Made by a program: the position numbers and the translations under genes
Assembly (NCBI GenBank): GCA_003599815.1
Contig: QZJZ01000010.1
Coordinates: 15,050 to 79,049 of the forward strand
Direction of reading: 5' to 3'
Origin: Candidatus Auribacter fodinae
GTDB taxonomy: Bacteria > Auribacterota > Auribacteria > Auribacterales > Auribacteraceae
DNA: 64,000 nt
Notes under the pieces: generated by a model
Told to the model about the DNA's origin: nothing
The model's database searches: none
The model's input: the letters and a program-made list of their open reading frames with translations, nothing else
Shown: positions 33,397-56,314 of the stretch, piece after piece
Layout: each line of letters starts with the position of its first letter
Numbering within the stretch: position 1 is the stretch's first letter

Positions 33397-34465
33397 TGTT
33401 CTCCTCCTTAAGAAACTGTCTGAACTGAGTCTTATCCTGAGCGAAAGCATACGCTTTCTGAGGAGAAATAACGCCGTTTTTAAGTAAATCCATAATACTA
33501 TCGTCCATCATGCACATACCTGACTTGGCTTTTCCGCTCTGAATAATGGACGGTATTTGAAACGTTTTGTTATCGCGAATCATATTTGCCAGAGCAGACG
33601 TATTGATCAGCAATTCCGCCGCGACAACCATTCCCTGCTTATCAGATCTGGGTATAAGCTGTTGAGATAATACGCCTTTCAATGATTCAGCCAGCATAAT
33701 GCGCACTTTATTCTGTTCACCCGGCGGAAACACATCAATAATACGGTTTACCGTACCAACCGCATCAGTAGTGTGCAATGTACCGAAAACAAGATGACCC
33801 GTCTCAGCCGCCGTAAGCGCTAGAGATATGGTTTCTAGGTCACGAAGTTCGCCCACCATAATCACATCAGGGTCTTCACGCAGTGCTGACCGCAATGCCG
33901 CAGTGTAACTTTTGGTATGAATACGGACTTCACGCTGGTTAACCACACCGCGAAGGTTTTTATGTATATATTCTATCGGATCTTCAATAGTGAGAATATG
34001 GTCAGCCCTGTTTCTGTTTATAAGGTTAACCATGGAGGCAAGTGTCGTGGTTTTTCCACTGCCCATGGGCCCGGTTACCAGAACCAGTCCCTGATGAAGG
34101 TCGGTAAAATTTTTAACCGCTGGAGGCAACCCGAGATCATGGAGTTCAGGTATAGTATCCGGTATCAGCCTGAATACGCCATTTACTCCGCCGCGGTACT
34201 GCATGAACAAGTTACCGCGATACCTGTAATTATCGGTGGAAGTATAGGCAAAATCAAGGTCAAGGGACTGCTTAAAGAATTCGCTCTGTTCAGACGTGAG
34301 CATTGCAAACAACATATCATGAGAATTCGATACAACATCATCATTATCATTAAGATACGTTAGTTCACCATGAAGCCGGACAACAGGAGCACGTCCTGAG
34401 GCAATATGGATGTCAGACGCACCCTTTTCCCGGGCTTGCGCGAATAGTTCTTCGATTTTGAGCAT
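33389..34465 (-). CDS. pilT: Type IV pilus twitching-motility ATPase PilT
   Basis: 358 aa. LVTGPMGSGKTTTLASMVNLIN, ...ILTIEDPIEY... and ...VGELRD.ETI... are PilT hallmarks. Confidence 0.85.
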   Translation of the reverse strand: MLKIEELFAQAREKGASDIHIASGRAPVVRLHGELTYLNDNDDVVSNSHDMLFAMLTSEQSEFFKQSLDLDFAYTSTDNYRYRGNLFMQYRGGVNGVFRLIPDTIPELHDLGLPPAVKNFTDLHQGLVLVTGPMGSGKTTTLASMVNLINRNRADHILTIEDPIEYIHKNLRGVVNQREVRIHTKSYTAALRSALREDPDVIMVGELRDLETISLALTAAETGHLVFGTLHTTDAVGTVNRIIDVFPPGEQNKVRIMLAESLKGVLSQQLIPRSDKQGMVVAAELLINTSALANMIRDNKTFQIPSIIQSGKAKSGMCMMDDSIMDLLKNGVISPQKAYAFAQDKTQFRQFLKEENNG

Positions 34466-39894: not shown

Positions 39895-41553
39895 ATGAAT
39901 TTCAAAGAATGCATATCACAACTTAATCCGAACCACTTAAAAACCATTACGGAGACGTATGGTATTGTAATAATACCGTTCGCTTCGCAACATGCTCGCG
40001 ATAAACTATTTGAGTATAGCAATAAACCGAATTTTTTCAAGGAATGCCTTGAATATTTATCGCCGGAACAGAAAAAAAGTCTTTTTTTGATCAATTTTTT
40101 CGCTGACTATCTTCCAGCGCCAATCATTAATCAATTCGTTGAGCAATCCGTTCCATGCCAAAAGATATTCGAAACCATCACTGTCCTTCTTAATGCAGGA
40201 TTCATTTTTCATATTATCAACACCGACACGGATGATTCGCATTATATTGTTCCTGATGAATTGCGCACGCTGCTTCATTCAATAGTGGCGAATAATAGAG
40301 CGCTTCTGTTCCCGGCCGAATCAATCGCTCCGTCACGCATCCATGCTGAACACGGTTCATTCATTCTTGGAGTGTTCGCTGTACTCATCGCAGGATTGAA
40401 AGACGAATTGCGCTTTAACATGGATAAAACGCTTAACAAGCGCGTCATAAATAAACTATCCAACCAGCTCTGCGTTATCGCCGACTCTCTGGGAGAAGAT
40501 ACGCTCTCGGCATACTGTAACGCATTGCTGGCGTATGTTACGTCTCTTGACCTGATTACACTCCGGGATCTTAAGCCTCTTTTCCGTATTAAACCGATTA
40601 ACGCATGGGTAAACCTCTCCTATACAGCAAAACAGGCGTCCTTTTTAAATTTCATTATAACATCATACGATGCTAACTACTCATGGCGCTCAATGATGCG
40701 GTTCATGGCGGAAATGAAGGAAGAAACCTTTTATCCTATAACTGCGCTGGCGGAATTGTACAAATCATTCTTTAAAGGCGATAATTTCTCGGAAGATACG
40801 TTTTATCGCAAACCATTATCGTATTTTCCCGTCTTCATACTCCACCAGCTCGATATTATAGAAATCGGTTCAAGCGACTTAGATACATTCTGCGCATGGA
40901 AAATTACCGACTCCGGCATGTGCCTTGTAAAAGGGATTATACCTGAAGCGGGAGAACCTCAGTACGATAACCGCATTATTATTCAGCCTAATTTTGAACT
41001 GATCATATCCAGAGATGCCGATCCACGCATATTGTGGAAACTCTATCTTGCCGCTGATATACACCAATGTGATTTTCTGATGCGGTTTCATTTCAATCGC
41101 CATTCTGTTCATCGCGGATTATCTCAGGAACTTGCTCAACCAGATATTTTTTCGATTCTGGAATCCAACACTGACCAGCCAATACCTCAAAACGTCTTGT
41201 ATTCACTAACGGAATGGTGCGAAGAATATGGATCTGTTTACTTTATGGACGTCTTCCTGCTTCGATGCAAAACCGCCCAACTGGCGGAACAAATCAGCCT
41301 GCATCCCAAGACACGAGATTATATTAAAGGTTCGTTTTCCGATACCGATTTGATTATCAGCAGGGAAGATTATCAGGACGTGTTTGATATCCTGCATTCA
41401 CTTGATCTGATGCCATTACGTAAAATCCGCAAACCGGATGCTAAATCGACTGAAAATATTCCTGATTTTTTAATTGATAACAACTATGTTCTGCGCCCTG
41501 TTTCGCAGTATAACGGACAGTCACTCAAATTTATCCCGGGCATAATAATATGA
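39895..41553 (+). CDS. XPB-helicase-associated partner protein of unknown function
   Basis: 552 aa with no catalytic motif I recognise. Its stop overlaps the start of the XPB-like helicase (ATGA), implying a co-translated pair. Confidence 0.5.
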   Translation: MNFKECISQLNPNHLKTITETYGIVIIPFASQHARDKLFEYSNKPNFFKECLEYLSPEQKKSLFLINFFADYLPAPIINQFVEQSVPCQKIFETITVLLNAGFIFHIINTDTDDSHYIVPDELRTLLHSIVANNRALLFPAESIAPSRIHAEHGSFILGVFAVLIAGLKDELRFNMDKTLNKRVINKLSNQLCVIADSLGEDTLSAYCNALLAYVTSLDLITLRDLKPLFRIKPINAWVNLSYTAKQASFLNFIITSYDANYSWRSMMRFMAEMKEETFYPITALAELYKSFFKGDNFSEDTFYRKPLSYFPVFILHQLDIIEIGSSDLDTFCAWKITDSGMCLVKGIIPEAGEPQYDNRIIIQPNFELIISRDADPRILWKLYLAADIHQCDFLMRFHFNRHSVHRGLSQELAQPDIFSILESNTDQPIPQNVLYSLTEWCEEYGSVYFMDVFLLRCKTAQLAEQISLHPKTRDYIKGSFSDTDLIISREDYQDVFDILHSLDLMPLRKIRKPDAKSTENIPDFLIDNNYVLRPVSQYNGQSLKFIPGIII

Positions 41554-43235
41554 AGTATCAACCAGACAACCCTTTAATCGTGCAGAGCGACAGCACTATT
41601 CTGCTCGAGGTAAACAACACGAAATACCAGGAAGCCCGTATCTGTATCAGCCGTTTCAGCGAATTGGAAAAATCTCCCGAACATATTCATACATATAGAA
41701 TTACTCCATTGTCTCTATGGAATGCCGCTTCAAGCGGGCTTGATCCGAACACTATCATAGATCAACTCAATGCATACTCAAAATACGATGTCCCGCAAAA
41801 TGTACTGCGCGACATCCTTGAATTTACCGGGCGTTACGGCAAAGTCAGATTGACTAAAGCAGATGATTCCGATGTATTGCTCCTTCACTCAACAGATCCG
41901 ATATTTATAGAGGAAATAAGCCACAATAAAAGCGCTCTCCCCTATATCGCCGGCAGAAAAGATGACAACCATTTGGAAATCAAACCTGAACACCGCGGAA
42001 TGATTAAACAGGTACTTATAAAAATGGGGTTCCCGGTCGAAGACCTTGCCGGATACAGACAGGGAACGCCGCATCCAATACATTTACGTGCTGAAACCAG
42101 TGCAGGACATCCGTTCAACCTGCGTCATTATCAGGAAGACTCAGTCGCTTGTTTTTATCAGGCAGGAAGCGTGCGCGGAGGCTCAGGAGTAATCGTGCTT
42201 CCCTGTGGCGCCGGTAAAACAATTATCGGTATAGCGGTTATGTCTCAACTTCAGACCCAGACACTGATCTTATGCACAAATATCGTCGCAGTACGGCAGT
42301 GGATGGATGAAATACTCGATAAAACCGACATCAGGCCAGAAGACATCGGTGAATACAGCGGCGAAAAAAAAGAAATCAAGCCGATAACCATTTCCACATA
42401 CCAGATACTCACCTACCGGAAAGACAAACAGTCCGATTTTGCTCATTTCCACTTATTTAACTCTCAGCAGTGGGGCCTGATCATATACGATGAAGTACAC
42501 CTTCTTCCCGCGCCGATATTCAGGATAACATCATCCATACAAAGTACTCGCCGTCTCGGTTTAACCGCTACTCTTATACGAGAAGACGGGCATGAATCCG
42601 ATGTATTCAGCCTGATAGGACCCAAAAAACAGGATATCCCGTGGAAAGAACTGGAAAAAGAAGGCTGGATTGCCACAGCATTCTGCCATGAAATACGTGT
42701 TCCGCTTCCTGATCACCTGCGAATGCAGCACGCTATGGCTACCTCAAAAACACAATATCGAATCGCGTCCGAAAATACAGCGAAAATATCTATCGTACAA
42801 AAACTTCTTGAAAAACATAAAAATGACAACGTGCTGATTATCGGCCAGTTTCTCACACAACTGGACGAGATAACAGAAGTAATAAAAGCCCCATTGATTA
42901 CCGGCAGTACAAAAAACGAAGAGAGGCAACGGCTATACTCTGAGTTTAAATCGGGTAAAATCAAAATACTTATTGTGTCCAAAGTCGCTAATTTTTCCGT
43001 TGATCTGCCTGACGCCAATGTCGCGATTCAGATTTCCGGCACATTCGGGTCAAGACAGGAAGAAGCGCAACGTCTGGGGCGTATTCTTCGCCCGAAAAAA
43101 ACAGGCGAACATGCCCATTTTTATTCCATCATAACCCGTGAAACGGCTGATCAGAAATACGCGGCAAAACGGCAGTTGTTCCTGACTGAACAAGGATACA
43201 GTTACGAGATCATTGATTCTAAGTCATTGGAATAA
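41550..43235 (+). CDS. XPB/Ssl2 (ERCC3)-like SF2 DNA helicase with N-terminal damage-recognition-like domain
   Basis: N-terminal PLIVQSDSTILLEV... DRD-like region. Helicase motif I, LPCGAGKT; motif II, IYDEVHLL; motif III, LGLTATLIRED; C-terminal RecA2 with ...QRLGRILR... Confidence 0.8.
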   Translation: MKYQPDNPLIVQSDSTILLEVNNTKYQEARICISRFSELEKSPEHIHTYRITPLSLWNAASSGLDPNTIIDQLNAYSKYDVPQNVLRDILEFTGRYGKVRLTKADDSDVLLLHSTDPIFIEEISHNKSALPYIAGRKDDNHLEIKPEHRGMIKQVLIKMGFPVEDLAGYRQGTPHPIHLRAETSAGHPFNLRHYQEDSVACFYQAGSVRGGSGVIVLPCGAGKTIIGIAVMSQLQTQTLILCTNIVAVRQWMDEILDKTDIRPEDIGEYSGEKKEIKPITISTYQILTYRKDKQSDFAHFHLFNSQQWGLIIYDEVHLLPAPIFRITSSIQSTRRLGLTATLIREDGHESDVFSLIGPKKQDIPWKELEKEGWIATAFCHEIRVPLPDHLRMQHAMATSKTQYRIASENTAKISIVQKLLEKHKNDNVLIIGQFLTQLDEITEVIKAPLITGSTKNEERQRLYSEFKSGKIKILIVSKVANFSVDLPDANVAIQISGTFGSRQEEAQRLGRILRPKKTGEHAHFYSIITRETADQKYAAKRQLFLTEQGYSYEIIDSKSLE

Positions 43236-43290
43236 ATCAGGTTCTTAACTAATTACTAAACCATTGTTTTATTAACGACGATATATTAAT

Positions 43291-43317
43291 TATACTTAGT
43301 CTCCTCAACTAAGTATA
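43291..43317. repeat. Perfect 10 bp inverted repeat TATACTTAGT-N7-ACTAAGTATA downstream of XPB gene
   Basis: Read directly: tatacttagt ctcctca actaagtata. It could be an RNA hairpin or a dimeric-regulator operator. Confidence 0.4.
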
Positions 43318-43330
43318 ATAACCCCTGAAG

Positions 43331-43366
43331 AACGAGGGCTGTTTTTCAGCCCTCGTTTGTTTCGCT
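43331..43366 (+). terminator. Rho-independent terminator after XPB helicase gene
   Basis: An 11 bp perfect stem AACGAGGGCTG / CAGCCCTCGTT with a TTTTT loop, followed by TGTTTCGCTTT. Confidence 0.6.
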
Positions 43367-43401
43367 TTACGCGACATAAAAAGTATTTTTAGCCTATCAA
43401 T

Positions 43402-43430
43402 TTGCAACCCGCCCGGTTATGCAGTATAAT
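43402..43430 (+). promoter_or_regulatory. Sigma-70 promoter (TTGCAA-N17-TATAAT) for giant subtilase gene
   Basis: Near-consensus hexamers at optimal spacing sit about 95 nt upstream of the ATG at 43525. Confidence 0.5.
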
Positions 43431-43524
43431 ATATAATGAAAGTGTAATAAAGCATGCTCTTTTTTTGTATTAAGAATAACCATACGTGTATTCACTAATG
43501 ATTATAAACATAAGGAAACGCATT

Positions 43525-46500
43525 ATGAGCACACTCCCCCTTCGAAACAGTGGTATTCGCGTATTATGCGCAATAGTGATATCACTTGTACTAGCAATGA
43601 ACTGCACGCTTCTTTTTGCCCAGTCCAGCAATAGCAGAAAAATAACCCGCGACAGAGAATCCACGCCTGATCGGGATGAACACATCTTTTTACGACGCAG
43701 TCACATAAATACGCGGTTCCATGACAGAACAAAAATACCTCGTCAATTAAGGACACGTTTTGCAAACAGGTTCATCATACAATTCAGCGATACCATTGAC
43801 GAATCATGGATTAATCAGCTGAATGATGCCGGGATAACCCTCGTTTCTTATATTCCTGAAAACGCATATATAATCACCATGAAAGAAGACGCGCCTATCG
43901 ACTGGTCACAGTTCCCTTTTGTCACATGGGCAGGCCCATATGAAGCGTACTATAAGCTGTCTGATGAAATTATCGCCAAAATTGAAGAACAACAGGATGT
44001 ACAGCCGACAGAAGCGGATCAGGAATTTCCTGAAATAATCTCTTTGAATGTGCTCTTTTTCCCGGGGGAAGAAGAAAAAGCGATTGAACAGATCGAAAAC
44101 CTGTTCGGTGAAGTCGTTTCTACCGTCAAACAGGGTTCTTTATCAATGGCAACCGTCCTGATACCCAGTTACCATCTCGAACAGGTAGCGCAGATTGACG
44201 GTGTAAAATGGATAGAAAGCGAACCGCGCTTAGTAAAACATAACGATCTTTCACGCAACCTGACCGGAGTTACCGCAACACTGCTGTCACACGCAACCCT
44301 GACAGGACGCGGTGTCATAGTTAATGTAAATGATACGGGAGTTGACCATACTCATCCCGCATTTGCGCTTAATCCCCTGCTCCCCACAAGTTATCCAGAT
44401 AACAACACCCGCATACGATACTATTCATGGGGTTCAGGAGAACAGGGTGACACTGACGCCCACGGCACACATGTATCAGGGTCTATACTCGGCAATGGCG
44501 CACTTTCCAATACAATCATTTCCGCTCCGGGTTCAACATACCCGTACTCAGTAAAAGGTATGGCTCCCGATGCGGAACTGGTTCTTATGGAAATATTTAA
44601 TGGAGGCGGTATTGCGCACACTACTATTTTAAACACCGCCTATACGCAAGGCGCCCGCATATCGTCCAACAGCTGGGGATACAACGGTTTTTTCGGTCCG
44701 CTTGCGCAATACGATTCTAATGCCGCAATATATGATGCCGGAGTCAGAGATGCGTTAAATATGACTTCAGGAGATCAGGGTTTGACAATATTGTTCGCCG
44801 CAGGTAATTCCGGTGGAGGAACCACGAACGGCCTCGGCGGAAAACCCAATACCGTCGCTTCGCCGGGAACAGCGAAAAACGTGATTACTGTCGGTGCGTA
44901 CGAACTTAACAGAAACGCTGACAACCACAATAACGCGGCAAGCAATGACAACGTTGGCGAAGTATCTTATTTCAGCAGCCGCGGTCCTGTGGAACCGGGT
45001 ACAGACGGTGAATTCGGGAGATTTAAACCGGATATCGTCGCTCCGGGCGTCTATGTTCTTTCAACGCATTCTTCTCAGTCCGAGGATTCCGATTCGTCAC
45101 CGACATCGTGGGATTACAAAGCGGGTAATGTCGACTCCGGTCCCCGATACGAATTTATGTCAGGGACAAGCATGGCATGCCCTGTCACAGCCGGAGTCAG
45201 TTCTCTTATTTATCAATACTACCGAGACCTCGGCAAAGCCATATCTCCCGCCTTACTTAAAGCTCTGCTTATCAATGGAGCCCGCAGTCTGAGCGCAATT
45301 TACGATTTTAATACTAAAGCAGATATAATTTATCAGGGCTGGGGAGGAATCAATTTACAAAATTCTATAGACGGACCGAACGGCATTGGTGACGCGAACG
45401 ACCTGCTTGTCTTCGATCAAGGAGATTTAGGCCTCTTGGAAACAGGCTCCACAGCTACCACCATTATTGCGGTTAATGACCTTTCACGCCCATTGCGTAT
45501 CACGCTTGTCTGGACAGACCCGCCGGGAGACCCCGCCGCTGATATAACACTGGTCAATAACCTTGACCTGCTTGTCACCGCGCCTGACGGTAAAGTATAC
45601 AGGGGTAATAACTTTCCTAAAGGCAGTACATGGACGGCTCCGGACGGCGAACACGATTTTATTAACAATGTTGAAAACGTCTATATCGACTCAGCGCTCA
45701 TCGGCGCCTATACTATATCTGTTAAAGGAACCTCCATTAACGCTGATGCCTGCACACAAACTCCCGGTACAATAGATCAGGATTTCGCGCTGGTTATCTC
45801 AGGAAGTATGGGATTCGAACCGCAGAGCTTCGCTTTAATCACCGTCAATAAACCGGTATGTAATATCGGTGAATTTATTACTGTATCCGTCGCAGATAAT
45901 GACCTCGCCGGATCAGGGTCATGCACCGTAACCGTATCCAGCGAAACGGAAACAGGCGAACAAATGACTCTTCTCGAATCCGCAACTGATGGTGTGTTTA
46001 ATGGTACCATACAGGTTGACAACGGCCCAGTCCAGGCTGGCGACGGCAAAATTCAGGTGGTTCAGGGAGAAGATATTGTCTTTACTTTCATAGATCAGGA
46101 TGACGGACAGGGCAATTTTAATACTCCTCGAACGGCAACAAGCCGCAGTAATACACCCCCTGTATTCTCCGGACTGCAATCATTAACGGAAGAAGAAAGT
46201 CAGATAACCATTTCATGGACTCCTGCCGTTGATCAGGAATCGCCAATAATCTACCGCATTTTCCGTAGAAAAGCCGGAGAAAGTTTTGATTTTTTCAGGC
46301 CATATATGGAAACAACAGACTTCTCCTTTACCGACACAATAGTTTCAGCGATCGTCACCTATCATTACCTTGTCCGTGCGGTCGACAAATATAACTTGTC
46401 AGACAGCAATACAGTAGAGTTATCAGGCAGTCCGGATGACTCAGTACCTCCATCATTTGAAGGATTAAAGGACATCTCTGCCGGTGACAGTACCATTCAG

Positions 46501-49500
46501 CTTGTCTGGTCACCCGCCTATGATCCGAGTTACCCAGTTTCCTACAATATTTACCGGGCAACGACATCCGGCGCTCAGGATTTTAATACTCCCCTTCACA
46601 CGCTGGCAGATCTTACAAAATATACAGATAACACAGTCACAAACGGTATCATGTACTTCTATGTGGTACGCGCTATAGATGCTCTGGGCAATGAAGACAA
46701 CAATACAGTTGAACTGTTCGCACAGCCTGATACACCTCCAAGCAACGTTATTTTTGTTGATAAAGACCGGCTGGGCGGTGGAAACGGTACTTCATGGCTT
46801 CAGGCATACAATAACCTCAGCCTTGCTATTAATGACGCGCAATCAGGCGGTAATCAGATAATATGGGTAGCCGAAGGCACCTATTATTTCAATGATACTA
46901 TTGTTATTCCTAACGGCGTGAAAATTTACGGCGGATTTGCCGGCGACGAAGTCAGCGAAACAGCCCACGAAACCCGTAATCCGCTGGAGCATAAAACAAT
47001 CTTCAAGAATAATTCCTTCTTCGCGGAATCTACTGTCCAGCTTGGCGAGAATGCTCTTCTCAATGGTGTCTATGTCAGTAAATATTATTCCGTATTTTTC
47101 GATGGAGTTGCTATAACCACTGTCGATTCCGGTGCGGAAATTAACCAGTGTGTAATCTACGACTCCAAATGGGGCATTCACAATAAGTCAACGGGTTCAG
47201 GCACTAAAATTTATAACTGCGTATTTCTGAACAACGAAATAGGCGTAGTCATGGACCAGCCGACAGTATCTCTAATTAACAATACATTTCAATTTAATGA
47301 TACCGCGGTTTCCATACTCACCAGCGGAGCCGCAACAATTAAAAACAACATTTTCTACAAGTGTGATGATTATGCGGTAAAAAATACCGGTTCAAGTACA
47401 ACTATATCACTTAACTATAACAATTATTTTGAGAATGGCGACAATTATTTGAATTTGTCGCCCGGGAACAATGAACTGTACGACGACCCTATATTTATAT
47501 CGGAAGACCTGGATTTTCATCTTGGTAAAGGATCTCCATGCATTAACGCCGGTGCAGCGTTAATCAATGACTATGATATCGAAGGGCAAACACGTTCTTC
47601 TGCGGCTATTGATATTGGCGCGGATGAAGTTGAAGTTGTCGATACGCCTTCAACAGCTATGCTCTTTGAAATACTCAACGACCCTATCGGTATGGTCAAA
47701 ATAACCGCAACAGTCAGTGACCCTAACGGTGATCTATGCAGAATGAAGCTGGAACATAAGGATTTGCTTGATCGGAACGCTCCCTATTTTAACAGTATAT
47801 GCGATGGACCTATAAGTTCAGTGCTCGGCTCGCCGCCGGACATCACAAATGATATGGACTACCAAATCGGTTCCAAAACACCTCTGCAAACCTTGGTAGC
47901 CAATACGTTAACATTTTATTGGAATTCAGGCAAAGACGTGTATTTTAAATATCACGTTCCCGCGCCCCGAAAAGAGTATAATATAAAACTCCGTCTCACT
48001 GTTAATGACGGAAAAGCGGATGACACTGCACCGCCTCAACCGAGTTTATATCTTGATAACCGACCGGTTATGCTCACTGAACCCGAATTCACCATAGGCA
48101 CAACAAATACGGTTCACTGCAAAGCGATTGAGCAAGCGTCGCAGTTCTGGTTCCAGGCATCAACATCATCGGCGTTCTCATCCATATTTGCTCAGAGCGG
48201 GTGGATACCCACCTCGTCACATACATTTACCGGTTTGGCGCAAGGCACTCAATACTATTTCCGTACTAAAGCAAGAGCGCTAAAGACTACATCAGCCCAG
48301 TGGATTCAGACAAAATGGAATGAGTTTAACACCAATTCACTGACTGACATTGACGTTATTACTCAACCGTTATCTGCAATACTCAACAGCGATTTTTCGT
48401 GGAAAAATGAGTTAATCCTTGATAGAAGTTTTGAAAGTATGTCCGGCGACTGGACTACCGGCGAGTCGATCAATGCATCGTCGGACAGCCTGATTGTTCA
48501 GAAAAACGGTACATGGGCATCTGATGGTGCATACAGCGCCAAAATTGCCAATAATACAGAGTCATTGAACTATCCCAATGATTACGGATACGTTCGTCAG
48601 AGCATTAACTTAACCAATGTCAGCGCATTGTTGTTTGATGTTAAGTACGAAGCGCTCAACCCAACCGGGCTCAAGGTAAAAGGACAACTCCGTGTCGGCA
48701 GTAAAATCCTGTGGGAAAAGGCTATATCTGGCGATCATCTGAATCAGGAAGTTGATGTTTCAGACATTACCGGCGCACAAAACGTGGAATTCAGGCTGGT
48801 ATTTCTTGATTATGTGCTTTCCACCACTACTTCCGATTTGTTCTCCATGCACATTGACAACATGCGGGCAAAAGGCCTTCAGCTCTATGATAACGACGGC
48901 GGGGTTATGGTAACACCTGTAATTTCACCAACAACTTTTGTCCGCTGGGAAACATTGCAGTATTCAACTTCAAATATCACCGACGCTACGGATGTGACTA
49001 TAGATGTGCTCGATTCATCCGGCAACGTATTGCTGGCAGATGTTCTCAGTACAACTGACTTGATGTCAAACGGAATCACTGGCCCGATCAAACTGCGGGC
49101 AACACTATATTCCTCTGATCCGGCTCAGACACCTGCTTTGGATGAATGGAGTATTACCTACATTGAAAAAGAAAATGAGGCTATTGATTCGGAATATTCC
49201 ACATCAACAACGTCTTATCAGGATTTTGACACGGATAACGACGGGATGCCGAACCAATACGAAACATATTACTCAACTCATCTTGCTGACCCATCCGCAA
49301 TACCGCTTGACCCGGCTGTTGCGGATGGCTCGGTCGACAGTGATAATGACTCCAAATCCAACTTCTGGGAATATATTACAGGCACTGACCCAACTGATCC
49401 GGCTGATTTTATAGAAATGACATCTAACATCACTTACACTGACGGCGTTACTGCTGTGGTATTAACAATACCATCCAAGGACGCACGGTGGTATGAAGCG

Positions 49501-49659
49501 TTCTCCTCTGAATGTGATACATCAGCACCAGTATGGACTCAATTGGGTGAAACCATTCGAGGCAACGGACTTAATATAACCTTTACGGATACGGATGAGG
49601 ATCTTGAGATTCCGTACGAAAAGAAGATATATTTTATCCGCATAAAACGTGACAACTAA
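43525..49659 (+). CDS. Giant (2044 aa) secreted subtilisin-like serine protease (S8) with FN3-like, right-handed beta-helix and Ca-binding repeat regions
   Basis: Signal peptide MSTLPLRNSGIRVLCAIVISLVLAMNCTLLFAQ with an AAGGA ribosome-binding site. S8 catalytic triad motifs VNDTGVDHTHP (Asp), HGTHVSGSILG (His) and GTSMACP (Ser). Two FN3-like modules (PPVFSGL...ISWTP; PPSFEGL...LVWSP). A beta-helix cap ...GGGNGTSWLQAY...GTYYFNDTIVIPNGVKIYGGF and NNxF repeats. C-terminal D-x-D-x-DG thrombospondin-type-3-like Ca-binding motifs. Confidence 0.85.
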   Translation: MSTLPLRNSGIRVLCAIVISLVLAMNCTLLFAQSSNSRKITRDRESTPDRDEHIFLRRSHINTRFHDRTKIPRQLRTRFANRFIIQFSDTIDESWINQLNDAGITLVSYIPENAYIITMKEDAPIDWSQFPFVTWAGPYEAYYKLSDEIIAKIEEQQDVQPTEADQEFPEIISLNVLFFPGEEEKAIEQIENLFGEVVSTVKQGSLSMATVLIPSYHLEQVAQIDGVKWIESEPRLVKHNDLSRNLTGVTATLLSHATLTGRGVIVNVNDTGVDHTHPAFALNPLLPTSYPDNNTRIRYYSWGSGEQGDTDAHGTHVSGSILGNGALSNTIISAPGSTYPYSVKGMAPDAELVLMEIFNGGGIAHTTILNTAYTQGARISSNSWGYNGFFGPLAQYDSNAAIYDAGVRDALNMTSGDQGLTILFAAGNSGGGTTNGLGGKPNTVASPGTAKNVITVGAYELNRNADNHNNAASNDNVGEVSYFSSRGPVEPGTDGEFGRFKPDIVAPGVYVLSTHSSQSEDSDSSPTSWDYKAGNVDSGPRYEFMSGTSMACPVTAGVSSLIYQYYRDLGKAISPALLKALLINGARSLSAIYDFNTKADIIYQGWGGINLQNSIDGPNGIGDANDLLVFDQGDLGLLETGSTATTIIAVNDLSRPLRITLVWTDPPGDPAADITLVNNLDLLVTAPDGKVYRGNNFPKGSTWTAPDGEHDFINNVENVYIDSALIGAYTISVKGTSINADACTQTPGTIDQDFALVISGSMGFEPQSFALITVNKPVCNIGEFITVSVADNDLAGSGSCTVTVSSETETGEQMTLLESATDGVFNGTIQVDNGPVQAGDGKIQVVQGEDIVFTFIDQDDGQGNFNTPRTATSRSNTPPVFSGLQSLTEEESQITISWTPAVDQESPIIYRIFRRKAGESFDFFRPYMETTDFSFTDTIVSAIVTYHYLVRAVDKYNLSDSNTVELSGSPDDSVPPSFEGLKDISAGDSTIQLVWSPAYDPSYPVSYNIYRATTSGAQDFNTPLHTLADLTKYTDNTVTNGIMYFYVVRAIDALGNEDNNTVELFAQPDTPPSNVIFVDKDRLGGGNGTSWLQAYNNLSLAINDAQSGGNQIIWVAEGTYYFNDTIVIPNGVKIYGGFAGDEVSETAHETRNPLEHKTIFKNNSFFAESTVQLGENALLNGVYVSKYYSVFFDGVAITTVDSGAEINQCVIYDSKWGIHNKSTGSGTKIYNCVFLNNEIGVVMDQPTVSLINNTFQFNDTAVSILTSGAATIKNNIFYKCDDYAVKNTGSSTTISLNYNNYFENGDNYLNLSPGNNELYDDPIFISEDLDFHLGKGSPCINAGAALINDYDIEGQTRSSAAIDIGADEVEVVDTPSTAMLFEILNDPIGMVKITATVSDPNGDLCRMKLEHKDLLDRNAPYFNSICDGPISSVLGSPPDITNDMDYQIGSKTPLQTLVANTLTFYWNSGKDVYFKYHVPAPRKEYNIKLRLTVNDGKADDTAPPQPSLYLDNRPVMLTEPEFTIGTTNTVHCKAIEQASQFWFQASTSSAFSSIFAQSGWIPTSSHTFTGLAQGTQYYFRTKARALKTTSAQWIQTKWNEFNTNSLTDIDVITQPLSAILNSDFSWKNELILDRSFESMSGDWTTGESINASSDSLIVQKNGTWASDGAYSAKIANNTESLNYPNDYGYVRQSINLTNVSALLFDVKYEALNPTGLKVKGQLRVGSKILWEKAISGDHLNQEVDVSDITGAQNVEFRLVFLDYVLSTTTSDLFSMHIDNMRAKGLQLYDNDGGVMVTPVISPTTFVRWETLQYSTSNITDATDVTIDVLDSSGNVLLADVLSTTDLMSNGITGPIKLRATLYSSDPAQTPALDEWSITYIEKENEAIDSEYSTSTTSYQDFDTDNDGMPNQYETYYSTHLADPSAIPLDPAVADGSVDSDNDSKSNFWEYITGTDPTDPADFIEMTSNITYTDGVTAVVLTIPSKDARWYEAFSSECDTSAPVWTQLGETIRGNGLNITFTDTDEDLEIPYEKKIYFIRIKRDN

Positions 49660-49682
49660 ACCTTATAATTTCTCTGTCTCAA

Positions 49683-49720
49683 AGCCCCTTCCTGAACCAT
49701 TTAGGAAGGGGCTTTTTATT
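49683..49720 (+). terminator. Rho-independent terminator after giant subtilase gene
   Basis: An 11 bp stem AGCCCCTTCCT / AGGAAGGGGCT with a 9 nt loop, followed by TTTTT. Confidence 0.6.
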
Positions 49721-49794
49721 TGACATCAGAATGTTACATAATTTCATCCATGAATATGCCATTTAATTATAAACGGGAAATACAACGGTATTTA

Positions 49795-49803
49795 TGGTAT
49801 AAT
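49795..49803 (+). promoter_or_regulatory. Extended -10 promoter (TGGTATAAT) for second giant gene
   Basis: TGnTATAAT lies about 60 nt upstream of the ATG at 49865. There is no good -35, which is consistent with the extended -10 class. Confidence 0.35.
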
Positions 49804-49864
49804 AGTATTGTATTTTTTTTACATTTACTGAGTGTCACCGCCACTAAAGGATTATATACATAGC

Positions 49865-52800
49865 ATGAAAGCAAAGAAGTATTTTTATACATTCTGCACG
49901 ATCCTCTTTCTTATTACATATTGTGCATTCAGCCAAAATACAATTAATCACTCATATGGTGAAGAACCTGCCATATCCAGCCGTTCAGAAACCGCATACG
50001 AACCTTCACTTCGGGAAATTCTGGATACGCGATCATACTCTTTAATTGACTGGTACAAGGGAAATTCCAACGTATTTATACTCAATATACAGGATTTTCA
50101 CGGCAATTATGCCACTCAAAAAAAATATTCCGCCCTATTCGAGAGCCTTATAAAAAGCAATCACACGTTCAATATTAAATATATTGCTGTCGAAGGGGCT
50201 TCAGGCATTATAGACACAACAACCGCCTCAACATACCCCGATGAGGCAACACGTAATGAAGTCGCTAATCAATTTTTGAATAGAGGATTTATTTCAGGCA
50301 TAGAGTACTACTCTATTACCGCTGATGATGCTCCGCCTATCATCGGGATCGATGATGCTTCCCTGTATAGAAAAAATGCTGAATTGTTTCTCCGTCTTCA
50401 GGATGAGAACAGCGAGGAAATAAAACGTGCCTCCGCCTTTATGTCATTTGTACAGCAGGAATCCGCCGTTGTAATTAATACTATTCTTTCAGAGGATGAA
50501 AGAATTATTGTCACAGCTTTCACAGAATGGGTAACCAGCCGCATTTCGTCACTGGAGTATCTTCAGCAGATCAGCACTGTTAAACACGGTTCCGGCTTAA
50601 TTCCGCGTTACGCATCGCTCGACCGGCTTCGACACGCTGTAAAATTACAAACTGAAATAATGTATGACCAGCTAGAAAGGGAAAAACTGGAGTTCCTTCA
50701 CTCTGTTCACGCAATTATTCTTCCTGATGAGTATAATGAGTTATCCAAAAACATCATGCGTGCGTCTGTGGGGTCAATTGCGTCTGACGCGGTATACGCA
50801 AAAATTAGTGAAATAGCTGAACGTTATTCCCTGTCTCTTGACACATATCCAACTATTACCAGCATGACAATCATATCCAAAGCGTTTTCTTCTGTTACCG
50901 AGCAAGAGCTTCGGAAAGATTTGTTCTCATTTACGACTGAACTTGTTTCATCTGTCCCCGGACATCATCAGAGTATCACGGATATCCTTGCGTACGTCCG
51001 CATGACAGCCGTCATTGACGCTGTTACACAAACCCGCGCATCAAGAGAAGAATACGACTTTTACAAGAGTCAGTTTGAATCAGCATCCGCAGAAAAACTG
51101 CTTGATACTTTCAAGAATATCACCGGCAAAGATTTATTTGAAGGAACAAACGACACTGAATTACGCAATGTAGACTATATCCTGTCCATGGCAGATCAAT
51201 TCTATCAGGAAGCGCTTAAGCGTGACCAGCTCCTGCTTGAAAACAGCCTCCGTGTAAACCAGAAACTGAACGGCAAAACTATCGTTATGGTTACAGGCGG
51301 GTTTCATTCGGATGGGATAGCCGCGCTGTTAAAAGAACGGTCTATTTCATATGCTATCATTCGCCCTTATCTTGGAGCAGGCAGTTTAGAGTCAAACTAT
51401 AAATCCCTGATGTTTAACCAAACGCCTGCTTTCGACCACATTCTGTCTGCGTTGCCTGGCATGCTGATGCCCTCCTCAAATTTCAGGAATATTTTATACC
51501 CGGCAAATAAAGCGGTTCTACTGGCAAAGTGGATAATTATATCCGAAGCGATAAATCTTGCGCGGGAATCACAAAAACAAATACTCACCGCTGAATATCT
51601 CGCGTCAAGCATTACCGCCCATCAGACAAAATGGCTTGAGGAACTCCGCAGTGAACTTGACTCACGATATAAACCCCTTATCACCGCAGGCATAGCCACA
51701 CCAAAAGATATAGATGTAGAATTTGAGCGTTTCAGAGAAATATTGAATGCCATTGAATTTGATAGAAACGCCTATGCCGTCTACAACTTAATTCCAATAG
51801 TCATTCATGGTGAAACGCCCCATCGGATCATACTCAGCGTAAGTCCGGATAGCACAGTCACACCTCAACTGCCCGATTTTATAGATCTGCTGGATGACTA
51901 CAAAAACCCCTACTATCATTTTCGGATCTGGAACGAAGCAGAGCTGGAACACTATACCCGGCTGTCGGATATAATTGAAAGCAAAGATCTCGAATTATCA
52001 ACTGAAGCGCGCCAAAACATCCTTGTCCTTATGGATTTGTTCGGGTTAGAAACAGTCGACCAGCTTATTGAGGATATGCCCTCCTCAGCTTTAAATTCTC
52101 TGTTGGAAAGCCTCCCTGATTATGAGGAATTAAAACAGTTTGTCACCATGGCAGGGCATGAAAACGCGACTGAACTGCTGATATGGGACCCTCAAGGCTT
52201 TTTCAATTTGGTCTACACGTTTGAGAACATAGACGATACCGAACTTCAGACAAATTACATAGAACTATTGCTGTCACAACGACCGTCTTACCAGAATGGC
52301 GCGGGCAAAATGCCGGAATTCGTTATACAGCAGGCTTCTCTGTATGATGTTGATGAATGGATGCAGTACGGTATACCCAGAACGTTCAGCAGAGAACATT
52401 GGGAATCGGCAGATACAAATGATTTCTTCTACAAAGCTATGGCCGCTAATGGAACAGTCATAGGGTTAATCAGCGCCCGTATAGCTGAAGGACATAACCT
52501 AGTTTATGTTGATTTTCTGGAAACCTGTTCTACCGTTCAGCATAAAGGTATTGGGACAGCTCTTATCAAATCTATTGTTGCAGAAAGCCTTCGGAGCGGC
52601 TTTGACGGTTCCGTTGCGCTTGATCCGCAATTCGGATCCAAGCCATTTTACACAAAATTAGGATTTATTGAGCAAACCAAAGGCAACACCTACCTACTCT
52701 TGCCGGAAGAAAACGCACTGAAGCTGTTAGGATCGCCCGAAGACATTAAACGGGAATCCAAAGTAAAAATAGATGAACAGCGTCTTGCAGAAATAGCATC

Positions 52801-55800
52801 ACTGCCGCAACTTCAGATAATCGAGCAGATAATCCCGCTTTTTCAGCGTTACAACAGCCTCACCAACGACAACAAATTACTCCTGATCAGTCAGCTGATG
52901 GCGGTGTACAATCTGAATCAGGAGCAGGCATTGAACGAACTATACATGATGTTGTCCAGCCCGTCTGTTTTCACAAACAAACTAACGGAATTGTATGATC
53001 TCATGATGGATACATGGATAACCTCTCAGGAAACCACGGACGAACTGCCTAATGCCGTCATTCGCCCTACACTCGGGCAATTGCCTGATGAAATGCAGGT
53101 TACATTTCCGCTTTTTCACCCTAAATATACATCTGTTCTTTTTTCTTTAATCGAACTTAACAAAACAACATCGCCTACTTCATTTGATGCTCCTTTGCGC
53201 GACACCCCTTCCGCTCTGAAATTTATACGGTACATGCTCCAGCAAAATGCGCTGTTTATGGACGTTGTTGCTGTACCTGAGAACGATCCCCGCATTAGCG
53301 GCAAAACCGCAACCCTGGAAGACAACATCCTTTACATCAACGAAAACGCTACCCGTGCCGAATTGTGGTTCTATCTTCCTCATGAGATTTCGCACCTGTT
53401 TAAAAATGAAACTGCCGCCCGGCTTCATGACGCCGACAATATCAATCATTTAAAAAACATAGCGAAAACGCTCCGGGAAGTTGCGGTTCAACTGCCCGTC
53501 GGAGAACGTAAGGATATGCTGATACAAATGTCGTCAGCAGTAATGAAGCACGCATTATCCTTTGAATTGGACATCCATACTGCTTATATGCAGTTAACGA
53601 CTCCCGGAAAGAACATTCTGAGAAACAACAACCTGCCTTATTTCGATACGGAAAATGAATTATACCTTGCTTCTATTGCGGGCGCGGCGTCCCGGCTCAG
53701 GGAACCGGTTACGGATTTAAAATTATTTTCTGAAATAGAAAAGCTTGCGGCAGATGCCAGCGTATCTGTGGACCAACTGACAGCCAGAGTAAACCGGATA
53801 GTTACCCGAAAGATAATTAACAATTCTCTCGAACAAATAAAACCCTATCAAAACGATATTGATGAGATAATTCAAAACTGGCTGAAAAAACAAATTAAAC
53901 ACCGTTTATGGCATTTCACAACACACGCCATGCCCCGTGATTTGCGCCCCTTTGTAACAACATCCTCTCGTGAACTTGGATACCTTGATATAAATGATAT
54001 CCGCACACGAATCGTCGCTCATATTAGATCAATTGAAGATCCCAAAGCAAAAGCCGATTTTGAAGAAATTGTTGCGAAATGGCTTAAACGACTAATATCT
54101 GATAATATTAAATCGCTTAACTTACCCAGTGACCTGCGTTCCGCATTGAATGACGGCTGTTCCAATTGTCTCGGTTATGCCAAACTCTATCGCGCCTTAG
54201 GGTTTCAATTCGGGCTCAACATCGAAGTCACTCTTTATTATTACGAAACGAACGATGTTCCACACCTGCATGCCGCGAATTTAGTGCTTCTTTCTGATGG
54301 ACATCGCTATCTTACTGATATTGGTGACCTTACACAGTATTCACCTCCCTCGCATGTGTGCGTACAACTCGAATCGAGTACCGGGCTTACACCCGCAACG
54401 ATCACCATGCAGGATTATTTAATACATAGCAGAATTATCCGAGGTGTTCCTGAAGAATATGTCAGCGCCTTCGGATATTCTAACAAAGCCTATGACTTAT
54501 TTGTCTACGACTCACGTGTTGAACAGGCATTCCATGCGATTTCAAAAGCGTATGCCCTCGCTCCCGGCAACCCGTACATCGCCTCTAACATGGCAGAGAT
54601 ATCTTTCAGCCATTGGAAGAGATCTCTTACCAGCTTGGGAATCCAGCCGTCTCAAGAGGAACTCCTTGATAAACTTCGCGAATTGTATGAACAATATCAA
54701 TTGCATATCAATTCAATGGAATCCCTGAACAACTACTACAAGGCACAATTGAAAAGCGCGGCGAGAATAGCAAAAGTAGAAATGGTAAACCCCATTAACG
54801 GCGGCAACGGTAATTTCAGGTTCCCGCTATACCAGAATGTACAGAAAAAACAGGAACCGGCAGAAACAGCGGAAACGCAGAAGCCGCAAACACCATCACA
54901 GCCTGTTGACCGTGAAACAGCCGCAAAAAACGATGCAATGGCGCTCGATCATCTTCAGAGAATGGGCGAGATGAACCGCATTGCCCATGGAATCACACCC
55001 ACACAACAAGGATCAAAAACGGAAAATGCCCTGTTTCAATACAAAGTCAATCAATTGCTTGGTACCGGTATAGACTACAACACTGCACGCAGTCTTATAC
55101 AAACAGGAGCGGCTCTGCAAAAAATGATTGAACAACAACAGTTTCAACAAGTAAATGCACGCCTGACGGGGCTTGACCCTCATTTTGCAGAACGGATTAT
55201 GATCGAATTCCCGTATATCATGGCCTACTTACTGGAAATTTATCCTGAATGGTGGAAAGGAAAAGAACTCCGTGAACTCGCTCGCCAGCACCGGCTGACT
55301 GAAGAGGTAAAAGCAATGGTGAGAAAACAGATGACTACTGTAACGGCAACTCAGTCATCACAGGATCGTGACAACATTCGACGCCCTTATGAGTTTAACC
55401 CGCTGTGGACAATCGCCCGAGACCGCGCCAAATTATTGAACAGCCTTGAAAGAGCATATGAACAGGATAGAATTACCGATCAGCAATACCGCGCAATTTA
55501 TAGCCTTCTTACTGCAGATTCCCCTGTTTCAAAAGAATCTTTATCATATGAACAAAGAAGGGTCTTATTTGGCAAAGAAGATGAAATACCTGTACCCGGC
55601 GGATTATCTGTTAGCAATAACTTTATACTCGGAGACACGTTCATCGACGTTCCTAAAACCACTGAATTCAGCACATACGCATCATTCCTTACTACACTTG
55701 TTGATGAGCATCCTCAGGAACTCGCTCTTGTCCTGAATGATATGGATCAGGAACCGTTTCTCGCGGGTATCGTTGCGGCCCGCAAAGGAAAATCTTTCAG

Positions 55801-56314
55801 CAGAGCCCATGCAGACGCGCGAGGCGGGTTATCGTCCGTCGCGGATGACCTTCTGTCTTCTATCAGCGGTGACCAGATCGAATCTTCCCTTGAATCGATA
55901 AGTGAATCAGGGTATATACGCGTTTTTCTTGAGGAGTTGTTCACCTCAAATATACTGCGAAAAGACATTCAGGCATTTGTCAGGTCAGTTCAGGAAAAAG
56001 GGATTTTATCTCCGCAGGAAAAAACTATGTTCGCTTATTTCAATAATTATTATATTACCGGTGATGAAAATACAAAATCATTTCGGGACGGAATCACTCT
56101 TGTAGAGCAACTCTTTCGTATTGATAATGATGTTCGGGATCAACTGACCGCATTGCAGGCACAATTACGCGATGCTGACCCCGGCAAATTCTTATTCGCA
56201 TTAATCACGTCGACTTATTATGACGCGTCAGGTACTCTGGTTTCTCCGACACAGCCGGCATCTGCTTTACGAGGTTATTCTGTCCGGCGTGACCTTCTCG
56301 AACAAGCATTATAA
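49865..56314 (+). CDS. Giant (2149 aa) secreted multi-domain protein: TIKI/TraB/GumN-like domain + GNAT acetyltransferase + HExxH motif + transglutaminase-like Cys-His-Asp core + long helical C-terminal region
   Basis: Signal peptide MKAKKYFYTFCTILFLITYCAFSQ. The N-terminal ~450 aa carry the ...FILNIQDFHGNY... and ...TIVMVTGGFHSDGIAALL... pair characteristic of the TIKI/TraB/GumN/ChaN family (nt ~50040-51330). A GNAT fold follows: ...VIGLISARIAEGHNLVYVDFLETCSTVQHKGIGTALIKSI...YTKLGFIE (nt ~52400-52680). HEISH at nt 53381-53395. A TGase-like core ...CSNCLGYAKLYRALGF...HLHAANLVLLSDGHRYLTDIGD (nt ~54160-54330). Confidence 0.8.
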   Translation: MKAKKYFYTFCTILFLITYCAFSQNTINHSYGEEPAISSRSETAYEPSLREILDTRSYSLIDWYKGNSNVFILNIQDFHGNYATQKKYSALFESLIKSNHTFNIKYIAVEGASGIIDTTTASTYPDEATRNEVANQFLNRGFISGIEYYSITADDAPPIIGIDDASLYRKNAELFLRLQDENSEEIKRASAFMSFVQQESAVVINTILSEDERIIVTAFTEWVTSRISSLEYLQQISTVKHGSGLIPRYASLDRLRHAVKLQTEIMYDQLEREKLEFLHSVHAIILPDEYNELSKNIMRASVGSIASDAVYAKISEIAERYSLSLDTYPTITSMTIISKAFSSVTEQELRKDLFSFTTELVSSVPGHHQSITDILAYVRMTAVIDAVTQTRASREEYDFYKSQFESASAEKLLDTFKNITGKDLFEGTNDTELRNVDYILSMADQFYQEALKRDQLLLENSLRVNQKLNGKTIVMVTGGFHSDGIAALLKERSISYAIIRPYLGAGSLESNYKSLMFNQTPAFDHILSALPGMLMPSSNFRNILYPANKAVLLAKWIIISEAINLARESQKQILTAEYLASSITAHQTKWLEELRSELDSRYKPLITAGIATPKDIDVEFERFREILNAIEFDRNAYAVYNLIPIVIHGETPHRIILSVSPDSTVTPQLPDFIDLLDDYKNPYYHFRIWNEAELEHYTRLSDIIESKDLELSTEARQNILVLMDLFGLETVDQLIEDMPSSALNSLLESLPDYEELKQFVTMAGHENATELLIWDPQGFFNLVYTFENIDDTELQTNYIELLLSQRPSYQNGAGKMPEFVIQQASLYDVDEWMQYGIPRTFSREHWESADTNDFFYKAMAANGTVIGLISARIAEGHNLVYVDFLETCSTVQHKGIGTALIKSIVAESLRSGFDGSVALDPQFGSKPFYTKLGFIEQTKGNTYLLLPEENALKLLGSPEDIKRESKVKIDEQRLAEIASLPQLQIIEQIIPLFQRYNSLTNDNKLLLISQLMAVYNLNQEQALNELYMMLSSPSVFTNKLTELYDLMMDTWITSQETTDELPNAVIRPTLGQLPDEMQVTFPLFHPKYTSVLFSLIELNKTTSPTSFDAPLRDTPSALKFIRYMLQQNALFMDVVAVPENDPRISGKTATLEDNILYINENATRAELWFYLPHEISHLFKNETAARLHDADNINHLKNIAKTLREVAVQLPVGERKDMLIQMSSAVMKHALSFELDIHTAYMQLTTPGKNILRNNNLPYFDTENELYLASIAGAASRLREPVTDLKLFSEIEKLAADASVSVDQLTARVNRIVTRKIINNSLEQIKPYQNDIDEIIQNWLKKQIKHRLWHFTTHAMPRDLRPFVTTSSRELGYLDINDIRTRIVAHIRSIEDPKAKADFEEIVAKWLKRLISDNIKSLNLPSDLRSALNDGCSNCLGYAKLYRALGFQFGLNIEVTLYYYETNDVPHLHAANLVLLSDGHRYLTDIGDLTQYSPPSHVCVQLESSTGLTPATITMQDYLIHSRIIRGVPEEYVSAFGYSNKAYDLFVYDSRVEQAFHAISKAYALAPGNPYIASNMAEISFSHWKRSLTSLGIQPSQEELLDKLRELYEQYQLHINSMESLNNYYKAQLKSAARIAKVEMVNPINGGNGNFRFPLYQNVQKKQEPAETAETQKPQTPSQPVDRETAAKNDAMALDHLQRMGEMNRIAHGITPTQQGSKTENALFQYKVNQLLGTGIDYNTARSLIQTGAALQKMIEQQQFQQVNARLTGLDPHFAERIMIEFPYIMAYLLEIYPEWWKGKELRELARQHRLTEEVKAMVRKQMTTVTATQSSQDRDNIRRPYEFNPLWTIARDRAKLLNSLERAYEQDRITDQQYRAIYSLLTADSPVSKESLSYEQRRVLFGKEDEIPVPGGLSVSNNFILGDTFIDVPKTTEFSTYASFLTTLVDEHPQELALVLNDMDQEPFLAGIVAARKGKSFSRAHADARGGLSSVADDLLSSISGDQIESSLESISESGYIRVFLEELFTSNILRKDIQAFVRSVQEKGILSPQEKTMFAYFNNYYITGDENTKSFRDGITLVEQLFRIDNDVRDQLTALQAQLRDADPGKFLFALITSTYYDASGTLVSPTQPASALRGYSVRRDLLEQAL

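Follow-up and report, generated by a model that had tools for sequence, protein, structure and literature searches.

The DNA analysed here, called the window, is a 64,000-nucleotide stretch of Candidatus Auribacter fodinae contig QZJZ01000010.1. At 43525-49659 on its plus strand it carries one intact gene for a protein of 2044 residues, referred to below as the S8 protein. The product is probably an exported subtilase zymogen of ~220 kDa with a beta-rich tail that looks non-catalytic, and it most likely degrades protein outside the cell, on substrates that are particulate or bound to surfaces. The protease kind itself is already known; the S8 protein adds to it one more giant multidomain secreted S8 subtilase, with a lineage-specific tail. 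The structural reading given in an earlier note on this DNA (a subtilase of family S8 that is exported, has its triad intact, carries fibronectin type III (FN3) modules, a beta-helix, and a tail with calcium motifs, and forms a transcription unit of its own) was borne out, and that note's suggestion that the protein processes or activates its giant downstream neighbor was not. The coordinates of all features are collected in Table 1.

Profile and structure searches identify the protease core. Pfam Peptidase_S8 (PF00082) matched residues 261-589 with E 6.5e-42, and its score, 144.2 bits, clears the cut-off of 21.8. A phmmer search of all PDB sequences returned KP-43 (1wmd, E 5.2e-51) and SubHal (5fax). 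The alignment to 1wmd runs from residue 240 to residue 738, reaches KP-43 residue 421 of 434, and includes the C-terminal jelly-roll of KP-43, with the motif LRITLVWTDPPG...LVNNLDL...NNVENVYI. In this alignment D270 (VNVNDTGVDH), H313 (AHGTHVSG), and S549 (SGTSMACP) pair with D30, H68, and S255 of KP-43, which form its catalytic triad, and the AAGN motif with the oxyanion residue N428 is aligned as well. In an alignment of 34 family sequences D270, H313, and N428 never vary and S549 is conserved to 90% or more; none of the four residues varies among the four orthologues. The Asp, His, and Ser motifs picked out earlier are therefore genuine triad motifs, aligned residue for residue to KP-43 and conserved in the 34 family members. 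An AlphaFold2 (AF2) model of residues 1-880 was built from the 34 sequences (predicted TM-score (pTM) 0.76), and Foldseek superposed it on 1wmd with a target-normalized TM-score (TMt) of 0.84 at 34% identity. The Pfam scan of the S8 protein gave no match to P_proprotein (PF01483), though this domain is present in most homologues. Several named subtilase identities were rejected by curated NCBIfam equivalog cut-offs, and their scores reflect generic S8 similarity: type VII mycosin (51 bits against 279), dentilisin PrtP (29 against 300), and the EprS autotransporter (19 against 1700). Identity as an LPXTG peptidase was likewise rejected by its curated cut-off.

The chain in front of the catalytic domain has the layout of a secreted precursor. 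The N-terminus is hydrophobic in 4 of the 4 orthologues, and the predicted signal-peptide cleavage site is uncertain between VLA|M and LFA|Q. A lipoprotein was ruled out, as AMNC is not a lipobox. The AF2 model resolves the prodomain into two lobes, each a beta-alpha-beta-beta-alpha-beta unit. Lobe 1 has strands (E) and helices (H) at E82-87, H93-101, E104-110, E114-119, and E133-138, and lobe 2 at E171-178, H183-192, E196-203, E206-214, H215-222, and E227-232. The prodomain region is common to all 120 of the homologues listed. Foldseek fits the pro-forms of Tk-SP (ProN-Tk-SP), Tk-subtilisin, and subtilisin E to the model at TMt 0.65-0.75. By sequence, the I9 propeptide profile (PF05922) was not matched in residues 1-260, where no Pfam family scored at E <= 10, and it was matched by 0 of 12 family prodomains tested. 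The propeptide or I9 domain that the earlier note had proposed looking for in residues 60-250 is thus present as a prodomain, at ~50-239, and is not Pfam I9 by sequence. KP-43 has a long prepro region of ~200 aa. Its mature N-terminus, N1-D2, aligns with N240-D241, and both residues are invariant in the 34-sequence alignment. Autoprocessing is therefore predicted to occur at H239|N240.

The reading frame and its conservation support a functional gene of this length. The longest plus-strand open reading frame (43486-49659) opens at a GTG at 43486, and the ATG at 43525 is the favored start. AAGGAAA lies 7 nt before this ATG, and the product has the same length as database entries of 2044 aa. The single 2044-aa gene called earlier is thus upheld by an uninterrupted frame and by a start that matches the database entries. 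A pseudogene or mis-assembly is excluded by the unbroken frame and by four orthologues that are collinear along the full length. Identity per domain across the four orthologues is 31-71%, highest in the catalytic domain and lowest in the jelly-roll, and since every domain is conserved the entire chain appears to be under selection. The full-length architecture was found in four homologue clusters only (P0001-P0004), of which P0001 is 99% identical to the S8 protein. From this restricted distribution the S8 protein is not a widespread housekeeping protease. The protease head is far more common and is shared by at least 1590 proteins, those with a named source coming from Verrucomicrobiota, Kiritimatiellae, and "Binatia".

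The tail was analyzed with profile searches and a second AF2 model, built for residues 1061-2044 from 5 sequences with a mean predicted local distance difference test score (pLDDT) of 50. The first tail domain, residues 745-875, has no family match in the Pfam scan and, among the homologues listed, is matched over its whole length by the orthologue set alone. The FN3 region follows. Pfam fn3 (PF00041) scored 29.2 bits on the whole protein against a cut-off of 25, a scan of residues 871-1090 alone gave two stretches, the FN3 copies resemble each other, and PDB entry 3mpc ("Fn3-like") matched residues 980-1066 with E 1.8e-4. The two FN3-like modules expected from the earlier note are confirmed by the above-threshold Pfam score, the two stretches, and the PDB match.

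The next domain is a right-handed parallel beta-helix. Pfam Beta_helix (PF13229) matched with E 2.3e-7 on the whole protein and 31-35 bits against a cut-off of 25.9, the 35 bits being reached when the region was scanned alone. Its C-terminal cap is of the choice-of-anchor-Q type (DFHL..GSPCIN...DIGADE), and NCBIfam choice_anch_Q scored 25.3 bits against a cut-off of 25. AF2 models the domain at pLDDT 70-88. The helix had been described as DUF1565-like; the beta-helix itself stands by PF13229 and by fold, and the DUF1565 label holds weakly at best, as PF07602 is unmatched in the S8 protein and gives a weak match in orthologue P0003.

The best Foldseek matches of the beta-helix are a PL3 pectate lyase (TMt 0.70), pectin methylesterase, and alginate lyase, and the PfbA adhesin and viral proteins are matched too. 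The three enzymes would suit a bifunctional enzyme in which the beta-helix is a polysaccharide lyase or hydrolase and glycoprotein or cell-wall matrices are attacked by two activities, as would a Pfam Pect-lyase_RHGA_epim match with E 5.6e-6 and the presence of a CBM-like (carbohydrate-binding module) jelly-roll in the chain. This arrangement is unlikely. Identity between the helix and the enzymes is 11-15%, non-enzymatic PfbA and the viral protein LH3 fit the same fold, and the Pect-lyase_RHGA_epim score on the whole protein, 26.7 bits, falls just below the curated cut-off of 27. The sequence features of the helix are those of the generic Beta_helix or choice-of-anchor-Q class, which has no assigned activity.

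With residues 1380-2044 as the query, HMMER was run exhaustively against 1.8 billion representatives and returned 858 proteins at E <= 1e-3. Beyond the orthologues, residues 1380-1510 are common to 2 of the 150 best proteins in this search, and the third FN3-like domain occurs in 138 of the 150, often as repeats. These two domains are left without a structural assignment because the AF2 model is unresolved over 1317-1641. For the two-domain module of ~290 aa that comes next, 12 unrelated multidomain proteins could be aligned, with 26-30% identity. The module has no matching model in Pfam or NCBIfam, and a PDB profile search was marginal at best. AF2 models its jelly-roll at pLDDT 60-86, and Foldseek relates this fold to CBM4, CBM29, a mannanase CBM, and MAM domains (E 1e-4 to 1e-3). 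The sandwich that follows carries the motif TVDVL...IRLRANLS..TP.L..W. Proteins that share the FN3-like, jelly-roll, and sandwich units also bear C10 or C14 peptidases, beta-propellers, and BACON, GEVED, or dockerin domains. These tail units are generic extracellular binding-type modules.

The C-terminus holds two calcium-type motifs, DTDNDG(MP) at residue 1902 and DSDNDS at residue 1938, in a region that is likewise of low confidence in the tail AF2 model. TSP3_bac (PF18884, a thrombospondin type 3 (TSP3) model) stayed below threshold at 13.0-14.9 bits against a cut-off of 25, and tblastn ties the tail motifs to TSP3 regions in 72 loci. These came from the scan of GTDB genomes with the tail alignment, whose back-translated patterns mostly reflected the TSP3 motif; the 72 are unrelated TSP3 proteins, and no further orthologue was among them. 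The earlier call of C-terminal D-x-D-x-DG repeats thus holds for a real TSP3 resemblance and has to be reduced to two motifs that are sub-threshold in Pfam. The last 82 residues form a separate domain with 43-44% identity in all orthologues and six strands in the AF2 model (pLDDT 55-70). The chain ends in IYFIRI, and the orthologues end in FYKLKI and LYKIKV.

No hydrophobic segment is present at the C-terminus or anywhere past the signal peptide, nor is a membrane anchor. When the last 154 aa were scanned against Pfam and NCBIfam at E <= 10, only chance-level matches to unrelated models came up, the presence of LPXTG, PEP-CTERM, and type IX secretion system (T9SS) models not having been checked one by one. 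From these scans, no curated C-terminal sorting or anchor model fits. The earlier observation that the protein has no cell-wall or PEP-CTERM sorting signal agrees with the lack of a C-terminal hydrophobic segment and of any Pfam or NCBIfam model at E <= 10.

Other large exported proteins end in a comparable way. Five Verrucomicrobia proteins (L004, L005, L006, L056, and L066) finish with TSP3 motifs followed by a beta domain of ~75-90 aa that closes with FYR[VIL], and the same ending is present in a second Auribacterota protein, the LTD protein at L078 22920-24785 (minus strand). The subtilase end aligns in register with these C-termini but weakly, with an hhalign probability of 3.7%, which rises to 32% (E 4.9e-4) once the Auribacterota sequence is added. 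The TSP3 motifs and the FYR-ending domain may therefore form a C-terminal module of the Planctomycetes-Verrucomicrobia-Chlamydiae (PVC) group, which is a lead and not a result. By analogy with the C-terminal domain of T9SS cargo, it is conceivable, if doubtful, that TSP3 motifs plus a domain of ~80 aa with an aromatic-aromatic-basic-hydrophobic end act as an unrecognized PVC signal for export or surface anchoring. In that case the subtilase would be among the proteins sorted by a pathway not yet described.

Transcription signals frame the S8 gene on both sides. The upstream terminator, whose GAGGGC/GCCCTC core is partly kept in the orthologous locus L001, insulates the gene from the helicase pair before it. 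A promoter-like site, TTGCAA-N17-TATAAT, lies at 43402-43430. Its -35 ATTTGC and -10 AGTATAAT boxes are kept in L001, where the flanks have diverged. The region holds 14 promoter-like sites against 15.0 ± 4.1 in shuffled sequence, which is not above chance, and support for this promoter accordingly rests on position and conservation. Of the independent strong sigma-70 promoter described earlier, the site and the L001 conservation of its boxes stand, and its strength as evidence is tempered by a site count no better than chance. The terminator assigned to the gene was found as a 16-bp stem directly behind it. The downstream giant has a conserved extended -10 of its own, TTATGGTATAATAG, at about 49793-49806. 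Taken with the conserved promoter of the S8 gene and its flanking terminators, this makes the S8 gene most likely monocistronic. Between the helicase stop codon and the upstream terminator lies a perfect 12-nt inverted repeat, ATTATACTTAGT-N7-ACTAAGTATAAT, at 43289-43319. Its core, TACTTAGTCTCCTC[A/T]ACTAAGTAT, is identical in L001 despite diverged flanks, and the repeat might be an operator, or else a small RNA hairpin.

The downstream giant (49865-56314) is a GNAT/M78-like protein of 2149 aa, with 100% identity to a protein of Candidatus Auribacter fodinae. Its start is most likely the ATG at 49865, and its N-terminus, MKAKKYFYTFCTILFLITYCAFSQ, is signal-like. About one-quarter of its length is common to Omnitrophota and Elusimicrobiota proteins of 1500-3700 aa with varied enzyme domains. 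A dedicated maturation protease that cleaves or activates the exported giant, as SphB1 does with FHA or leader peptidases do with lantibiotics, would explain why the two genes, in one orientation, are neighbors in the window as well as in L076 (the same species) and L001 (a relative), the only loci where they were seen side by side. Contact between the two proteins is topologically possible because both have signal-like N-termini, and L003 has a remote homologue of the giant (22% identity over ~600 aa) behind a YfhO gene, 2 kb downstream of its S8 orthologue. However, the 16-bp-stem terminator stands between the two genes, and both have conserved promoters of their own. Synteny with L001 extends over at least the NAD synthase-helicases-S8-giant block, so the adjacency may be inherited through shared ancestry and not selected. 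A domain common to the S8 protein and the giant was looked for and none was found. The giant's orthologue P0272 (36% identity) has no S8 neighbor, and neither does its paralogue P0274 (30% identity), which is encoded elsewhere in the same genome as P0001. Downstream of the S8 orthologue P0003 (L002) the contig continues for ~6 kb without a giant, and YfhO and an unrelated methyltransferase-containing protein are found there instead. The long tail of binding modules is also atypical of a dedicated maturase. A maturation role is distinctly unlikely, and the earlier proposal that the S8 protein processes or activates the giant falls on the separate transcription units, the lack of a common domain, giant relatives without an S8 neighbor, and an S8 orthologue without a giant nearby.

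The remaining neighbors were recorded in their own right. A gene for a YfhO-family membrane protein stands directly downstream of the S8 gene, in convergent orientation, in L002 (6703-8766, minus strand) and L003 (6326-8392, minus strand), and takes the giant's position in both of these loci, the more distant ones among the S8 orthologues. An overlapping gene pair at 39895-43235, upstream of the S8 gene, encodes a 552-aa protein with Helicase_C_3 only, followed by an XPB/ERCC3-type helicase of 561 aa. This pair is kept upstream of S8 in L001 and L076 and resembles an XPB + partner arrangement. Two adjacent genes for T2SSE/PilB-PilT-type ATPases of 620 and 358 aa lie ~9 kb upstream at 31588-34465 on the minus strand.

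Table 1. Features of the S8 gene, its product, and its flanks, in window coordinates.
Feature	Residues	Window position	Strand	Basis
Intrinsic terminator of the upstream XPB-type helicase pair		43330-43358	+	12-bp stem, 7 GC pairs, T-rich tail
Sigma-70-like promoter, -35 TTTGCA/TTGCAA, -10 TATAAT		43401-43430	+	10/12 consensus
Predicted signal peptide	1 to ~33	43525-43623	+	Sole hydrophobic window of the protein, residues 6-35
Prodomain, ~190 aa, two lobes	~50-239	43672-44241	+	AF2 pLDDT 75-93
S8 catalytic domain	240 to ~600	44242-45324	+	PF00082; KP-43 alignment; Foldseek
Catalytic codon	D270	44332-44334	+	Verified
Catalytic codon	H313	44461-44463	+	Verified
Catalytic codon	N428	44806-44808	+	Verified
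Catalytic codon	S549	45169-45171	+	Verified
KP-43-type C-terminal beta jelly-roll	~620-738	45382-45738	+	AF2 pLDDT 76-92
Beta-sandwich without assigned family	~745-875	45757-46149	+	AF2 strands, pLDDT < 50
Two tandem FN3 domains	877-1068 (about 877-970, 972-1068)	46153-46728	+	Pfam fn3, PDB 3mpc
Right-handed parallel beta-helix	~1075-1370	46747-47634	+	Pfam Beta_helix, Pect-lyase_RHGA_epim, NosD
Domain without assigned fold	1380-1510	47662-48054	+	Not resolved by AF2
Third FN3-like domain	1511-1600	48055-48324	+	Weak Pfam fn3 and Pur_ac_phosph_N matches
Two-domain module: "NPSFE" jelly-roll + beta-sandwich	1601-1788 + 1789-1890	48325-49194	+	Alignment, AF2, Foldseek
Two TSP3-like Ca-binding motifs (predicted)	1895-1960	49207-49404	+	Motif scan
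C-terminal beta domain, 82 aa, ending ...KKIYFIRIKRDN then stop	1963-2044	49411-49659	+	Orthologue conservation
Strong intrinsic terminator of the S8 gene		49681-49715	+	16-bp stem, 7 GC pairs, then TTATTT

A surface adhesin or structural envelope protein whose protease domain serves for self-processing only would fit the ~64% of the chain made up of FN3, beta-helix, Ig-like, or CBM-like modules and a C-terminal TSP3 + beta domain like the ends of other large PVC proteins, but is very unlikely, as the catalytic core is the best-conserved part (63-71% identity) and belongs to a family of > 1500 subtilases with differing tails. "Protease and/or adhesin" remains the reasonable reading of the S8 protein.

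Extracellular proteolysis fits the lineage. Auribacterota are described as anaerobes that live on sugars and amino acids and encode numerous proteases with signal peptides (PMC9324843), and for Candidatus Auribacter fodinae, a member of the PVC group, anaerobic fermentation of sugars and amino acids was inferred from metagenome-assembled genomes (MAGs). A pyruvate:ferredoxin oxidoreductase gene lies near the S8 gene. In the proposed mechanism the S8 protein would be exported by the Sec system, and the prodomain would act as intramolecular chaperone and inhibitor until autocatalysis at H239|N240 removes it. The mature protease would be held on, or directed to, polymers that serve as substrate, for example detritus, cell envelopes, or glycoprotein matrices, by the FN3, beta-helix, and CBM-like modules. 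Ca2+ would be bound by the TSP3-type motifs, and the C-terminal beta domain would possibly serve for surface retention. The released peptides would feed the fermentation of amino acids and peptides inferred for Auribacterota. The S8 protein would then be a fairly ordinary nutrient-scavenging or surface protease.

Several points weigh against this account. Substrate and physiological role are read from architecture and lineage metabolism only, and a protein of 220 kDa would have to pass through the PVC outer membrane or become attached to it. The beta-helix could be catalytic instead of binding. AF2 leaves residues 745-875 and 1317-1641 poorly resolved. The links from the prodomain to characterized prodomains are marginal: the PDB profile search gave 9rk9_A at E 0.074, and Fervidolysin_NPro-like reached E 0.007 in one family member alone.

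The exact sequence is already in NCBI, deposited as "hypothetical protein C4541_01500". Members of the near-identical UniRef cluster are labeled "Fibronectin type-III domain-containing protein", and a sister MAG has the label "S8 family serine peptidase" (MEW6534147.1). The residue-level annotation given here, which marks the triad and the predicted site of autoprocessing and maps the domains in 14 parts, goes beyond the deposited "hypothetical protein" and "Fibronectin type-III domain-containing protein" labels. It provides a concrete candidate extracellular protease for Candidatus Auribacter fodinae, a deep-subsurface PVC-group lineage known from MAGs alone. The protease on its own is no surprise, and the analysis also takes away a tempting, unsupported tie to the neighboring giant. 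The widespread jelly-roll + beta-sandwich module of ~290 aa, which has no curated family, may be of wider use, and so may the TSP3 + C-terminal beta domain that recurs at the ends of large PVC proteins.

Among known systems, the Gram-positive envelope subtilases (the C5a peptidases ScpA and ScpB, SpyCEP, and lactocepin) also have FN3-type domains joined to an S8 head and are found by Foldseek with E ~1e-15. They differ in having a PA-domain insert and an LPXTG anchor, and their TM-scores to the S8 protein are ~0.27-0.30. Unlike the LPXTG-anchored ScpA, SpyCEP, and lactocepin, the S8 protein has no tail family model at E <= 10 and no C-terminal hydrophobic segment. Tk-SP (3afg) and fervidolysin (1r6v) are alike in fold over the prodomain, catalytic domain, and beta domain (3afg, TMt 0.73 over 638 columns). 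These enzymes are archaeal or from thermophiles, are 17-22% identical to the S8 protein, and are without a long tail; the two-lobed prodomain of the S8 protein is about twice as long as theirs.

KP-43 and SubHal of Bacillus are alike in the catalytic domain with its contiguous jelly-roll, the triad, the oxyanion residue, and the mature "ND" N-terminus. KP-43 stops after the jelly-roll as a mature enzyme of 434 aa, whereas the S8 protein goes on for ~1300 aa, and its host is a PVC-group anaerobe and not a Bacillus. KP-43 is MEROPS S08.123, in the "oxidatively stable protease" (OSP) subgroup of the pyrolysins, and identity within the OSP clade is reported as ~92% (PMC9549277). The S8 protein is 33-34% identical to 1wmd and 5fax. 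As ~34% is far from the ~92% within the clade, sequence comparison places it as a distant KP-43 relative outside the Bacillus OSP clade.

Counterparts in design are the giant proteins annotated as "subtilisin-like proprotein convertase family" (P0005-P0120, 1200-3400 aa), which come from Verrucomicrobiota, Kiritimatiellia, and other phyla. They share the N-terminal third of the S8 protein made up of prodomain, S8 domain, and jelly-roll at 33-40% identity. Most carry P_proprotein (PF01483), PPC, or LamG-type tails, of which the S8 protein has none, and its combination of beta-helix, FN3, and jelly-roll tail modules is limited to the four homologue clusters. The design is otherwise the same, a constant protease head with a long variable tail, in some cases with FN3 and TSP3_bac. 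Because the > 1500 relatives of the core differ in their tails, the protease is suggested to be the constant functional unit and the tails its targeting devices.

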